64,000 bases of DNA from Candidatus Doudnabacteria bacterium (lineage in GTDB: Bacteria > Patescibacteriota > JAQUNI01): positions 9,761-73,760 of the forward strand of contig JBAZQX010000006.1 of the NCBI GenBank assembly GCA_041644975.1, written 5' to 3'. Of the stretch, positions 1-53,287 are shown piece after piece. Both the position numbers and the translations under genes were made by a program. Under the pieces are notes generated by a model. The model saw only the letters and a list, made by a program, of their open reading frames with translations, was not told where the DNA came from and made no database searches. How positions within the stretch are numbered: the first letter of the stretch is position 1; every line of letters starts with the position of its first letter.

Positions 1-120
1 GATCAATGTCATTCGTGAATTAATTTTCAATTTCCAATTCTCAATTTTTTCACCCTCGCGGGTGACCACGGGAAGAGGCGTGGTAATCAATTTCTGATGT
101 CTAAATTTCTAAACTGTTGC

Positions 121-152
121 CCCCGTTTAGAAATTTCTCATTTCTAACGGGG
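121..152. repeat. family A short module (ccccgtttagaaatttctcatttctaacgggg)
   Basis: Same hairpin module as the inner part of the long family A copies. Confidence 0.55.
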
Positions 153-207
153 TTTAAAAATTAAGTCACTAAAAATTTAATAAAAATTCAAAATTAGAAA
201 TTAAAAA

Positions 208-3317: not shown

Positions 3318-4613
3318 TTGGAGGGAAATGATCTTTTTAAAATCACACTACCCCTTACAAGGGATGGGAGGAAATCTATGTCAGACCAGTATAAAACAGA
3401 AATTATTGATCCGGGCGACCAAGCTTCACATCTTGCCCACGAAGTCTGCGTCCAAAGCTACTCTAACTGCAAAGCGGTAATTATTGTTCCACACCAACCG
3501 GGGAATTTTCGCGGATCAGTCGGTTTTCTTTGGAAGCCGCACATCCTGGAAGCAATGGCGAGAAACAGGGTTGATCCCGAAAGTGAAGTATTAACCCATT
3601 GGGAAATGCTCCAAGAAGTGGAAAATGACGGCGCTGGCGGCAAACCCCAATTTTTTACCCTGTTGGGAATACTTGAATTCTTTCAACGTCTGGGCTTCGA
3701 GATTATCACAATGACTGCCGATGATTTCGCCCGCTCTGGAAGATTTCCCGCAGTGATGGTGAACGAGATAAACACGAAAAGGATCACCGAGGAAAATTTT
3801 CCTCTCTTCCAAGCCGCAATGGAAGGATACGGCAAGGCGCTGGAAGAAGCTGGACTTGTAAACATCACCGGCGAAATTGCCATAATGAAGCACAGTATCA
3901 CTGCTTTCTGCGACACAGGATCTTTAGCAGAATTTATTCTCACTTGGGGAGGCACTTGTATCGGCTTAGCCCACCGCGATCTCTTGATTGATGGGTCGGA
4001 AATCAAGCCCGGAATGCCGATTGTCGGATTCTGGGAGCCGGGCTACCGTTGCAACGGCGGCACGTTCTTCACTAACTTAATCCTGCAAAAATTCGGACCG
4101 GAGATACAAAGAATCAAAGATAATCCTCGAGCTCTGGACTTTATCGCCAATTTAACCATACCTTCTAGAAGTTATGCCCGCACTATTACACGTATCGCGG
4201 GCTGGTATCCGGACGGAGGCATCGGCAAGCCGCTAGCTAAGATTTACGGCATTGCCCATATCACCGGCGGCGGGGTCTGGAAAAAATTTGGCGAGTTGTT
4301 GCCCGAGGGCGTTGGAGCGAATCTTGACTCTATGCCCGAACCCACCGAAGTTCTGAAACAAGGTCAGGAACTTTCTTGGGATCTCCCGGATTTAAGACTC
4401 ACGGACAGACAAGCCTATGGCACGCTCCACGGCGGCTGCGGCATGCTCCTTGTATGCGCGAAAAATGACGCGGAAAAGATTATCGCGGAGGCAGAAAAAG
4501 ATAGAATCAGCGCAGAAGTGGTTGGTGAAACAACAGCATCGCCGGACAGAGAGGTAGTTATTCATTCACGCTTTAAGGAAGGCAGAATCCTTTCTTCAAA
4601 AAACCCTGAATAA
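3318..4613 (+). CDS. PurM-like AIR-synthase-related protein
   Basis: C-terminal domain carries GIAHITGGG motif typical of the PurM/AIR synthase-related superfamily; true start may be the internal ATG at 3378. Confidence 0.6.
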   Translation: MEGNDLFKITLPLTRDGRKSMSDQYKTEIIDPGDQASHLAHEVCVQSYSNCKAVIIVPHQPGNFRGSVGFLWKPHILEAMARNRVDPESEVLTHWEMLQEVENDGAGGKPQFFTLLGILEFFQRLGFEIITMTADDFARSGRFPAVMVNEINTKRITEENFPLFQAAMEGYGKALEEAGLVNITGEIAIMKHSITAFCDTGSLAEFILTWGGTCIGLAHRDLLIDGSEIKPGMPIVGFWEPGYRCNGGTFFTNLILQKFGPEIQRIKDNPRALDFIANLTIPSRSYARTITRIAGWYPDGGIGKPLAKIYGIAHITGGGVWKKFGELLPEGVGANLDSMPEPTEVLKQGQELSWDLPDLRLTDRQAYGTLHGGCGMLLVCAKNDAEKIIAEAEKDRISAEVVGETTASPDREVVIHSRFKEGRILSSKNPE

Positions 4614-7325: not shown

Positions 7326-7483
7326 CGTCATTGCGAGGAGTCCCGAGCTTGTCGAGGGACGACGAAGCAATCTCATCGAGCGTAATATCTAGTTTTATGA
7401 GATTGCCTGCCCGCCATCGCTTCGCTTCAGGCGAGGCGGGCGGGCTTCGTCGTCGGGCTTCTGCCCTCCTCCTCGCAATGACG
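7326..7483. mobile_element. MITE-like nested palindrome, family B (TIR cgtcattgcgagg / cctcgcaatgacg)
   Basis: ~158-bp imperfect palindrome containing the core gcctgcccgccatcgcttcgcttcaggcgaggcgggcggg; related copies at 22700, 39184, 58864 and the core alone at 23021, 32914, 38286, 38936, 51862. Confidence 0.7.
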
Positions 7484-51034: not shown

Positions 51035-51108
51035 TGGCAGGCCCTGAGGGAGTCGAACCCCCGACTGTGGTTTTGGAGACCACCGTTTTACCGCTAAACT
51101 AAGGACCC
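51035..51108 (-). tRNA. tRNA-Trp (anticodon CCA)
   Basis: GGTCTCCAAAACC anticodon arm (loop CTCCAAA), G73, encoded CCA. Confidence 0.85.
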
Positions 51109-51115
51109 ATTGCAA

Positions 51116-51361
51116 TTATAAGATTTTTAATCTTTTCAATAATCCGTGATGTGCAGAGCCAAATTGTTTGAGTTTATGTTCGCGTTCTTTGGCAAGTTCC
51201 TCGCTAGAATAAGCTTCATAATAAACTAATTTTAAATTGAACATCTTTTTTGTTGTGAATACCTTCTGATTCTTGTGCTCGCTTATTCTACGCCGTAAAT
51301 CCCTGGAATATCCAATGTATATTTTTTTATTGCCATCTTTCAAAAGGTAAACATAGAACAT
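51116..51361 (-). CDS. GIY-YIG nuclease-domain protein (short, YhbQ-like)
   Basis: 81 aa: YVYLLKDGNKKIYIGYSRDLRRRISEH matches GIY-X10-YIG with conserved Arg and Glu. Confidence 0.75.
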   Translation of the reverse strand: MFYVYLLKDGNKKIYIGYSRDLRRRISEHKNQKVFTTKKMFNLKLVYYEAYSSEELAKEREHKLKQFGSAHHGLLKRLKIL

Positions 51362-51375
51362 ATTTTTACATTTGT

Positions 51376-51478
51376 TTTGGACCCAGCCCTTCGCGATGGG
51401 CTGGGTTCGCGAAGGGCTGGGTGGAGACCGTCGTTATACCACTTACCCAGCCTCTCGCGAGAGGCTGGGTTAACTACA
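51376..51478. repeat. family D palindromic repeats (ccagcccttcgcgaagggctgg)
   Basis: Related copy at 54395-54460. Confidence 0.55.
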
Positions 51479-51499
51479 CCCCCGAAAAACAATTTTTAA

Positions 51500-51861: not shown

Positions 51862-51917
51862 GAGATTGCCTGCCCGCTAATAGCTTCGCATAGCGAGGCG
51901 GGCGGGCTCGCAATGAC
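51862..51917. repeat. family B core repeat
   Basis: gagattgcctgcccgctaatagcttcgcatagcgaggcgggcgggctcgcaatgac. Confidence 0.6.
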
Positions 51918-51930
51918 ATAGAAGAGACTG

Positions 51931-52223
51931 AGCCGATGACCGGATTTGAACCGGTGACCTACTCCTTCACTTATACCTCTTTTTTCCTTTTAAAAAAAGC
52001 ACTTATAAGAGGGTTAGACTGTATCTTAAGCATATCTTAAAAAAGACTTAGCTCTTCTTGGCAGTCGTTCGGGCGTTGTCTGAAAAAATTAAAATAACGC
52101 CACGGTCTGAACCTTGTGCCAGGTCTTTAACCGTTATTCGAAAGCACTATAGGGATTTCTCCCAAAGTGGGCAGGTTTAAAGCGAACTACCATGGAGTTG
52201 CTCTACCACTGAGCTACATCGGC
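51931..52223 (-). tRNA. tRNA-Thr (anticodon GGU) interrupted by a 221-nt insertion in the anticodon loop
   Basis: 5' exon 52189-52223 (GCCGATG TA GCTC AGTGGTA GAGC A ACTCC ATGGT) and 3' exon 51931-51967 (AA GGAGT AGGTC ACCGG TTCAAAT CCGGT CATCGGC T) reconstitute a canonical cloverleaf with loop ATGGTAA. Confidence 0.65.
51968..52188 (-). ncRNA. putative group I intron (221 nt) between tRNA positions 36 and 37
   Basis: Follows U36 and ends in G; contains GGGAGAAATCCC GNRA-capped hairpin, P7-like GACTG/CAGTC pairing and an S-like element aagatacagtctaa (compare AAGAUAUAGUCC). Confidence 0.4.
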
Positions 52224-52633
52224 AACGAATTAAAATTGATTAAGGACTCTAGACACCATCGATTTATTATTTTCTTTAATTTGGTATTGCAAACATAAAT
52301 ACTTAAGGTGCCATATTGACTTTTATTCTTATAACTGCCCCCCTTCCCTTTTCTAATCTGAACATTTTTTAATTGATCTCTGCTTATACCTGTATTCTTC
52401 CGCCAAAAATCAATGGCCTTATTTACATCAACATCATCAAAAATATTCAATTCTGCTTTGATTTTTGATTCCCTAACGCCGCAAATTTTTCGCAAAAACA
52501 TCAAAAATGTGTTTAATATTTTAGGGTCAGTATTTGCTAGTTTAATGTGGCCTTTATCTCTTTTATCCCCCTCTCCGAGGTATAAACCAATTCCTAAATA
52601 AAACAAGCTTAATTCTGTATCGCCCTTTACCAA
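52214..52633 (-). CDS. LAGLIDADG-type homing-endonuclease-like protein (single motif)
   Basis: LSLFYLGIGLYLGEGDK resembles the LAGLIDADG motif; 139 aa with I-CreI-like spacing; TTG start as listed (start uncertain); 3' end overlaps the tRNA-Thr 5' end by 10 nt. Confidence 0.45.
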   Translation of the reverse strand: MVKGDTELSLFYLGIGLYLGEGDKRDKGHIKLANTDPKILNTFLMFLRKICGVRESKIKAELNIFDDVDVNKAIDFWRKNTGISRDQLKNVQIRKGKGGSYKNKSQYGTLSIYVCNTKLKKIINRWCLESLINFNSLPM

Positions 52634-52945
52634 TCGAACTTTAAAGGGATCGCCGTGAATATTACGTTTAACATAAGTAGCTTCACTTTTGTGATCTTCT
52701 TGGAATCTGATATTTTTGCATCCAATAAACTACTGTCTTATACCCCCAACCATTATCTTTGGCTATTTCCATCATTGATAGACCCTTTTTATATAATTTT
52801 TCCAATCTTTGTCTTTGTATCATACTATCAACTTAAGCTCTCCATGTAAAACGGAATAAGGAATTAGGAATAAATAAAAAACAAATATGGAACTACCAAT
52901 TGATATTCCTAATTCATTATTCCCAATTCCTGATTCCTAATATTG

Positions 52946-53028: not shown

Positions 53029-53119
53029 AAACTCAATTGTTCTATTGTTCAATCGCTCTATTGCTAAAATACAACAATCAAACAATGAAACAATTGAACA
53101 ATAGAACAATAAAGTTGTG

Positions 53120-53157
53120 AGCCGACTGTCGGATTTGAACCGACGACCTACTGTTTA
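53120..53157 (-). repeat. duplicated 3' half of tRNA-Thr(UGU) (anticodon loop to 3' end)
   Basis: gagccgactgtcggatttgaaccgacgacctactgtttac versus the genuine 3' half gagccagcggtcggatttgaaccgacgacctactgtttac; only the acceptor arm differs. Confidence 0.6.
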
Positions 53158-53174
53158 CCCCCCACCTTTCCGCC
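53158..53174. repeat. 17-nt arm ccccccacctttccgcc (family G), complementary to 53247-53263
   Basis: Together the two arms enclose the complete tRNA-Thr(UGU) gene. Confidence 0.6.
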
Positions 53175-53177
53175 AAG

Positions 53178-53249
53178 AGCCAGCGGTCGGATTTGAACCG
53201 ACGACCTACTGTTTACAAAACAGTTGCTCTGCCACTGAGCTACGCTGGC
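53178..53249 (-). tRNA. tRNA-Thr (anticodon UGU)
   Basis: GCCAGCG TA GCTC AGTGGCA GAGC A ACTGT TTTGTAA ACAGT AGGTC GTCGG TTCAAAT CCGAC CGCTGGC T. Confidence 0.85.
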
Positions 53250-53287
53250 GGAAAGGTGGGGGGCTCTACCACTCAGGCTACCTCGGC
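53247..53287 (-). repeat. second 17-nt arm ggcggaaaggtgggggg plus a degenerate tRNA 5'-half fragment
   Basis: gctctaccactcaggctacctcggc resembles the 5' half of tRNA-Thr(GGU) (gctctaccactgagctacatcggc at 52201-52223). Confidence 0.5.

Follow-up and report, generated by a model that had tools for sequence, protein, structure and literature searches.

The 64-kb stretch of DNA analysed in this work (hereafter, the window) carries on its minus strand, at positions 51931-52223, a tRNA-Thr(GGU) gene in which U36 is followed by an insert of 221 nt (51968-52188) that ends in G. The 5' exon, corresponding to nt 1-36 of the tRNA, reads GCCGAUGUAGCUCAGUGGUAGAGCAACUCCAUGGU on the minus strand (52223-52189) and ends in CCAUGGU; the 3' exon (51967-51931, same strand), AAGGAGUAGGUCACCGGUUCAAAUCCGGUCAUCGGCU, starts with AAGGAGU and ends with CAUCGGCU. 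When the two exons are joined, a perfect cloverleaf is obtained, with acceptor stem GCCGATG/CATCGGC, anticodon stem ACTCC/GGAGT and loop ATGGTAA. The intron-aware tRNA search proposed in the initial annotation was carried out with ARAGORN in intron mode (-i), and returned a tRNA-Thr(ggt) at c[51930,52223], in which the third base of the anticodon is followed by an intron of 221 nt. Together with the cloverleaf, this call confirms the initial description of two exons, 221 nt apart, that rebuild a perfect tRNA. The gene was missed by ARAGORN with default settings and by Rfam at the gathering threshold, which reported five tRNAs elsewhere in the window; no other tRNA-Thr(GGU) was found within the 64 kb when ARAGORN was allowed to consider introns. 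The longest open reading frame of the insert does not exceed 42 codons. Since the insert is present in a single copy in the window, it is not a MITE.

The insert is absent from a close relative

A locus retrieved by means of an identical L33 protein (L001; GCA_028717685.1, JAQUNI010000001.1) encodes proteins whose amino acid identity to those of the window is 100% for L33, 96% for S2, 95% for Tsf, 93% for RicT, 87% for a TPR protein and 82% for a caspase-like protein. Judging from these values, L001 is a close relative of the window, and distinct from it. At positions 3890-3962, within the same gene order, L001 contains an uninterrupted tRNA-Thr(GGU), whose anticodon arm is identical to that rebuilt from the two exons. 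At the insertion point the flanks are identical in the two sequences, with CTCCATGGT (longer version, GCAACTCCATGGT) on the left and AAGGAGTAGGTCA on the right, and the 221 nt are absent from L001. These identical flanks fix the limits of the insert at exactly 51968-52188, so that its position after a U and its terminal G, both noted initially, are confirmed. Absence from an otherwise syntenic relative indicates a recent gain or loss. L001 is also devoid of a helix-turn-helix (HTH) gene that flanks the split tRNA gene in the window, of a GIY-YIG ORF and of a repeat that follows the tRNA.

Other elements of the tRNA cluster

The GIY-YIG ORF (81 aa; Pfam E=1.4e-13) lies at 51116-51361 on the minus strand and appears to have been inserted into an ancestral tRNA-Trp gene. 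The 5' part of the old tRNA-Trp survives upstream (51374-51483, minus strand), split by two GC-rich palindromes (51445-51470 and 51382-51421), and beyond the ORF, at 51035-51108, stands a new tRNA-Trp that is complete and differs in its acceptor stem. Homologous small GIY-YIG ORFs are present in four other loci with intron-containing tRNA genes (L012, L028, L103 and L111), and in L012 and L111 they are close to the intron-bearing tRNA. At 53118-53287 (minus strand), a tRNA-Thr(UGU) gene (53177-53249) has on one side a 5' tRNA fragment with CCCCCCACCTTTCC and on the other GGAAAGGTGGGGGG with a 3' tRNA fragment; CCCCCCACCTTTCC and GGAAAGGTGGGGGG form a 14-bp inverted repeat around the whole tRNA-Thr(UGU), and at this place L001 contains a single ordinary gene. 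A short dispersed element with an internal GC-rich palindrome, CATTGCGAG...AATCTC, occurs at 51862-51915 and near 7329, 7472, 22703, 39199, 39296 and 59038. A copy of it lies directly after the 3' end of tRNA-Thr(GGU) and is absent from L001; the element is probably one of the MITE families mentioned in the initial annotation.

Homologs of the insert and profile searches

A single pattern scan of 185,579 species genomes, carried out with CTAAGN{4,30}TATGNNNAAGATAYAGTC, gave at least 119 loci. Among the matches listed, at least 30 further tRNA-Thr(GGU) genes are split after U36 by an insert of 188-217 nt ending in G. Six more introns of this Thr family were obtained with a covariance model and three more by means of the protein encoded by the flanking gene. 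The informatively named hosts, among the matches listed, are all CPR/Patescibacteria MAGs (Komeili-, Taylor-, Nomura-, Wolfe-, Buchanan-, Magasanik-, Portnoy- and Jacksonbacteria, Moraniibacteriota, Paceibacterota, Minisyncoccia and 'Saccharibacteria'), and a few others are named just 'bacterium'. ARAGORN often assigned a wrong isotype, such as Pro GGG or Arg GCG, to genes of the Thr family. The same scan also gave further split tRNA genes, for the most part from CPR MAGs, namely Asp(GUC) and Asn(GUU) interrupted at 35/36, together with Leu, Tyr and His calls. The pattern also matched MAGs of Omnitrophota, Planctomycetales and Clostridia. As for the window itself, the homologs of its RicT that bear a name (43-48% identity) are mostly from a 'Patescibacteria/Parcubacteria group bacterium', and from these names we infer that the host belongs to Patescibacteria. 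The contig of L001 measures 722 kb.

Profiles were built from the 29 other genomes of the alignment described below, leaving the window out. With the leave-one-out HMM, nhmmer found exactly one site in the 64-kb window (E=1.4e-44). The covariance model, R1, matched the insert end to end (model positions 1-215) with 171.8 bits and E~1e-50. Over all loci the R1 scores were bimodal: the Thr family gave 145-212 bits as compared to 43 bits at most for the group I introns of other tRNA genes, those for Asn and Asp among them. The window intron falls at the low end of the family scores, and has a shorter J2/3, longer L6 and L9 loops, and a C in place of A after P7. On the basis of these profile matches, it is a member of a family that is widespread in Patescibacteria (CPR) genomes.

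The search with the Rfam group I model RF00028, which had been proposed as a test, proved uninformative: the insert scored 14.6 bits, the gathering score being 50 (E=0.52, 801 nt searched), and the same blindness of RF00028 for this family has been reported (Nakagawa et al., 2026; PMC13011429). Despite the low score, the segment UUAAGAUACAGUCUAA aligned strongly to the J8/7-P7' consensus of the model. The topology implied by the RF00028 alignment, in which ACGGU/ACCGU is taken as P3 and the 5' strand of P7 is deleted, was rejected because P3' must come after P7, and because in the homologs ACGGUU/GACCGU is P4 and UCCC/GGGA is P3. The group II check that had been proposed alongside was negative, since no group II model appeared when Rfam hits were listed up to E=10.

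Secondary structure and covariation

The window sequence and the 29 others were aligned with 10 exon nucleotides on each side (alignment A1), a P1-P9 model was written by hand and its pairs were counted (intron nt i corresponds to window position 52189-i). This model, including the P3/P7 pseudoknot and P9.0, was paired in 92.8% of the cells over the 30 sequences, as compared to 30-42% in controls in which the partners were slid by 1-3 columns. Compensatory double changes were found in 35 of the 56 pairs, and the covariation score was 0.434 with respect to 0.108 or less in the slid controls; none of 500 shuffles reached the observed values. Compensatory changes are present in P2, P3, P5, P6, P8 and P9. 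P4 and P7 never vary across the alignment, so that neither of them contributes covariation; moreover, P7', J8/7 and the P8 receptor are fixed by the search pattern in most members.

The guide strand of P1, which could not be found by eye in the initial annotation, is CUGCC at 52170-52174 (intron nt 15-19, minus strand). According to the pair counts, G17 (52172) pairs with U36, C18 and C19 with G35 and G34 of the exon, and U16 and C15 with intron nucleotides A1 and G2. The U36.G17 pair is found in 29 of the 30 sequences, and the intron-side pairs of P1 covary (AU/UA/GC/GU). Stacked directly on P1 is the P2 hairpin (52145-52169, intron nt 20-44, minus strand), with a GAAA tetraloop at 52156-52159 that is kept in most members, and with compensatory changes in 9 of its 10 pairs. 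P3 is formed by UUUC at 52140-52143 and GAAG at 52054-52057 (intron nt 46-49/132-135, minus strand); 95% of its cells are paired and all four pairs covary. Elsewhere in the family P3 reads UCCC/GGGA, from which the window differs by two C-G to U-A double changes. J3/4, AAUA (intron nt 51-54), leads to P4, ACGGUU/GACCGU (intron nt 55-60/82-87), which is invariant and encloses a UAAA-type J4/5 and the P5 hairpin (52110-52125; intron nt 64-68/75-79; 4 of 5 pairs covary), the whole P4-P5 element spanning 52102-52134 on the minus strand. P6 (52072-52101, intron nt 88-93/112-117, minus strand) is a GGCGUU...AACGCC hairpin with an 18-nt AU-rich loop, in which 4 of 5 pairs covary, as exemplified by CCCGC/GCGGG in L004 and L107. 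Other P3 pairings guessed by hand (CUGGC/GCCAAG and GCUUU/AGAGC) and a 'P2.1' were dropped after the alignment.

J6/7, CGAAC (intron nt 118-122), and the 5' strand of P7, GACUG, with C122 (52067) bulged, occupy 52062-52071 on the minus strand and are invariant in all members. P7 (intron nt 123-127/168-172) is closed by the pair A121-U173, and A[C]GACUG/CAGUCU recurs throughout the family, also in the five members that were found independently of the pattern; being invariant, it provides no covariation. The P8 hairpin (52029-52053, intron nt 136-160, minus strand) contains an 11-nt-type GAAA-receptor motif, CUAAG...UAUG; its flanking pairs covary and 100% of the cells are paired, the motif itself being fixed by the pattern. 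It is followed, at 52013-52028 (minus strand), by J8/7 (UAAGAUA, intron nt 161-167), P7' (CAGUC), U, A and the 5' strand of P9.0, AC (52013-52014). The J8/7-P7' region matches the RF00028 consensus gAAGAUAUAGUCuaa. P9.0 (A175-C176/G219-U220), whose 3' strand GU (51969-51970) lies just before the terminal omega-G, is paired in 100% of the cells, with two (GC/AU) and three (UA/CG/UG) pair types at its two pairs. The P9 hairpin, CCUCUU...AAGAGG (51976-52012, intron nt 177-182/208-213, minus strand), covaries in 5 of 6 pairs. Finally, the omega-G (intron nt 221, window 51968, minus strand) is a G in 30 of 30 sequences. The three motifs that had been recognised from the letters alone thus find their place in the structure: the GNRA-capped hairpin GGGAGAAATCCC is P2, the P7-like GACTG/CAGTC pairing is P7, and the S-element-like aagatacagtcta is J8/7 plus P7'. 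Altogether, the hallmarks of group I introns that were found are the U.G pair at the 5' splice site, the omega-G, the P3/P7 pseudoknot, the order of the core elements, the bulge before the G-C pair of P7 (the putative guanosine-binding helix), the J8/7 consensus and P9.0.

The five members found independently of the pattern, either with the covariance model (L038 and L068) or through the flanking protein (L126, L127 and L129), keep J6/7-P7 and J8/7-P7' unchanged and vary in the P8 receptor. In L038 (3107-3305) P8 has no CUAAG/UAUG receptor and the L2 loop is GCGA instead of GAAA, whereas L068 (2913-3135) has a variant receptor, CUGCG...CAUG, and keeps the GAAA loop. The pair of differences in L038 fits a contact between L2 and P8 without proving it, and may represent covariation of a tertiary contact.

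An HTH and LAGLIDADG-like gene flanks the split tRNA gene

A block of about 620 nt (52224-52846) directly adjoins the first nucleotide of tRNA-Thr(GGU) and, as shown by the alignment with L001, is missing from that relative. It holds, on the minus strand, a frameshifted HTH and LAGLIDADG-like gene that extends into the tRNA (52214-52846). The HTH part starts from an ATG at 52823, an extra A in the A-run at 52680-52693 causes the frameshift, and the C-terminal ORF spans 52214-52729, its 171 codons (52217-52729) lying in the second frame; it ends with a UAG stop codon that coincides with tRNA nt 8-10. Intact homologs are about 195-205 aa long and contain the invariant motifs GDPF and G(L/I)GLYxGEGxK, the latter being a candidate LAGLIDADG helix with an invariant acidic residue (E). 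All 123 database homologs are annotated as 'hypothetical', and an exact look-up of the 139-aa ORF of the window returned no record. Pfam and PHROGs recognise only the HTH, leaving the C-terminal part without a Pfam domain; the match to Pfam LAGLIDADG_3 is weak (E=0.079, 13.7 bits with respect to a cutoff of 22.5). An AlphaFold model has a pLDDT of 91.4, and a Foldseek search gave nothing significant. As far as the predicted model goes, the protein has the LAGLIDADG core fold.

Among the matches listed, homologs of this gene occupy the same position in 14 of 36 intron-bearing loci, and no copy was seen in 21 of the 36, a few of which end too close upstream to judge. Six members of the gene family were also sampled regardless of introns, and all of them adjoin a tRNA-Thr(GGU). 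Three of these tRNA genes contain an intron (L126, L127 and L129; 163-186 bits with R1) and three are intron-less, represented by L121-123 (RicT 83% identical, the next-closest to the window), L124 from Margulisiibacteriota and L125 from Roseiflexaceae, in which the gene sits upstream of tuf. Just four intron-less tRNA-Thr(GGU) genes were present among the scanned loci. Therefore all four states exist: loci with neither element, with the gene alone, with the intron alone and with the two together. The window and its two nearest relatives account for three of these states. Distant paralogs of the gene (E 1e-16 to 1e-21), at L049 3584-4306, L111 5726-6454, L080 6973-7665, L077 2906-3601 and L127 2603-3280, adjoin other intron-containing tRNA genes (with calls such as His, Asp and Leu), one of them in an Anaerolineae MAG.

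The intron-less tRNA-Thr(GGU) of L121 (3097-3170), which stands beside an intact flanking gene, departs from the tRNA of both the window and L001 in its anticodon stem (GCAUA/UAUGC) and in its acceptor and T arms, despite close synteny. This difference could reflect co-conversion or a cleavage-resistant allele.

Discussion

Homology, covariation and the empty-site allele of L001 support the initial interpretation of the split after U36: the insert is very probably a compact, ORF-less group I intron located between nt 36 and 37 of tRNA-Thr(GGU), predicted to be removed by splicing. In the precursor, exon nucleotides G34-G35-U36 and intron nucleotides A1-G2 would pair with the guide CUGCC to form P1, placing the U36.G17 wobble at the splice site. 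The GAAA loop of P2 probably docks into the receptor-like motif of P8, and the core would be built around P7 by P3-P8 and P4-P6. Following the standard group I pathway, exogenous guanosine would cleave after U36; the 2-bp P9.0 would then set the terminal G (51968) into the P7 site and the exons would be ligated, giving a normal tRNA with the anticodon loop AUGGUAA.

One may ask whether the gene is instead dead, i.e. disrupted by a MITE or by a decayed intron that does not splice, with another tRNA decoding its codons. The sub-threshold RF00028 score, the frameshift in the neighbouring endonuclease-like gene and the presence of several other insertions and tRNA remnants in the same tRNA cluster would fit such a decay. 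However, the insert occurs once in the window, it keeps all the core positions that are invariant in the family, and both strands of its unusual P3 carry the matching changes. Neither exon is damaged, their sequence around the site is the same as in the functional gene of L001, and no other tRNA-Thr(GGU) is found in the window; we regard a dead gene as very improbable. Still less credible, to the point of being negligible, is an intron of another type, whether of group II or of the archaeal-type bulge-helix-bulge kind, which a protein enzyme excises. The location in the anticodon loop, taken alone, would suit it, but the insert is just 221 nt long and has a P1-P9 structure with an omega-G, Rfam gives no group II match up to E=10, and the position is 36/37 rather than 37/38.

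The introns of Azoarcus tRNA-Ile(CAU) and Agrobacterium tRNA-Arg(CCU) are, like that of the window, small (~200 nt), ORF-less bacterial tRNA introns located 3' of the anticodon (Reinhold-Hurek and Shub, 1992; for the cryo-EM structure of the Azoarcus intron, PMC13168695). A short P1 with just 3 exon base pairs and an L2 GAAA loop matched to a receptor in P8 are likewise shared with the window intron, in which the docking is predicted. Outside the core, however, they cannot be aligned with the window intron, which does not have the L9-P5 tetraloop/receptor pair. In the published phylogeny the Thr introns group with IA-type Patescibacteria introns (PMC13011429), and not with IC3. 

Contrary to what was initially supposed, group I introns in tRNA-Thr, and tRNA introns in this kind of lineage, have already been published. 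With a dedicated model (tFind), the bacterial tRNA/site classes known to contain group I introns increased from 4 to 21 (Williams, 2020; bioRxiv 10.1101/2020.01.27.920355), and Table 1 of Nakagawa et al. (2026) includes three complete genomes of Patescibacteria whose tRNA-Thr(GGU) has an intron at 36/37. The window intron is therefore a further member of a described kind and not a new class. The host tRNA, the site, the similar length, the lack of an ORF, the invisibility to RF00028 and the ARAGORN miscalls, reported as often Arg(GCG) 34/35 and seen here too, are all shared with these 'divergent group I introns' (a term from Castelle et al., 2018); the window genome is not among the three listed, and the likeness rests on their description and on the model from 29 other genomes. 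In that work splicing was obtained in vitro for Asn and Asp introns only, and the Thr family was presented without a covariation-tested structure, a splicing test or an analysis of flanking genes. The tRNA-Asn and tRNA-Asp 35/36 introns come from the same phylum, have the same general core motifs (J8/7-P7' of the AAGAUAUAGUC type) and co-occur with Thr introns in some loci (L019 and L068), but differ in site and host tRNA and score no more than 43 bits with the Thr-family model.

The flanking gene may be hypothesised to encode a homing endonuclease that is free-standing and specific to the tRNA-Thr(GGU) locus. About 35 nt separate the intron from the gene end, and the two could be co-converted (trans homing); alternatively, the intron might protect the site from cleavage (collaborative homing), although the existence of loci with the gene and without the intron (L121-125) means that such protection is neither universal nor obligatory. 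Precedents for collaborative and trans homing are F-CphI with the psbA intron of cyanophage S-PM2 (Zeng et al., 2009, as outlined in PMC6083498) and mobE/I-TevIII of phage T4 (PMC2790892). In both, as in the window, an ORF-less or defective intron stands beside a free-standing endonuclease-like gene, and both elements are optional between close relatives. The window gene differs in being LAGLIDADG-like with an N-terminal HTH, rather than Endo VII or HNH, and in occurring also beside intron-less alleles; its host is a cellular tRNA gene, as compared to a phage gene.

We tentatively suggest that the ORF-less Thr introns are not immobile relics and may travel together with unannotated, free-standing HTH and LAGLIDADG-like endonucleases by collaborative or trans homing, and that the distant paralogs may act likewise at other intron-bearing tRNA genes. 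It is also possible, if no less doubtful, that the intron, though genuine, is an old and immobile one that passes by vertical descent and is now and then precisely lost; the flanking gene would then be an independent selfish element of the same locus, without a part in the spread of the intron. Its occurrence beside intron-less tRNA-Thr(GGU) genes (L121-123, L124 and L125) is in line with such independence, as are the 21 of 36 intron loci without a copy (a few cut too close upstream) and the published view that horizontal transfer is infrequent (PMC13011429). An old, immobile intron is less easily reconciled with the absence of both gene and intron from the closest relative, L001, which is otherwise syntenic, with the paralogs that flank other intron-bearing tRNA genes (L049, L111, L080 and L077), and with the presence of the intron at 3 of 6 independently sampled gene loci, as compared to 3 of the 95 complete genomes of Patescibacteria covered by published work, the samples being small and partly biased.

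Default tRNA finders and Rfam miss genes of this kind; for this reason the genomes appear to lack tRNA-Thr(GGU) and their completeness scores drop. The family model and the covariation-tested structure obtained here make such split genes findable. The intron taken alone is of modest interest, and more can be gained by following the family of endonuclease-like genes, with its series of presence and absence. The combinations of gene and intron offer an explanation, open to direct test, of why ORF-less tRNA introns are patchily distributed among reduced genomes, and may be a natural snapshot of the stage, proposed for the origin of mobile group I introns, at which 'endonuclease and intron meet'. 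In the published work endonuclease genes were sought only inside the introns, the term 'free-standing' does not appear in the text, and infrequent horizontal transfer was deduced for want of internal endonuclease genes (PMC13011429). If the tentative reading of a travelling intron is true, it would overturn that deduction.
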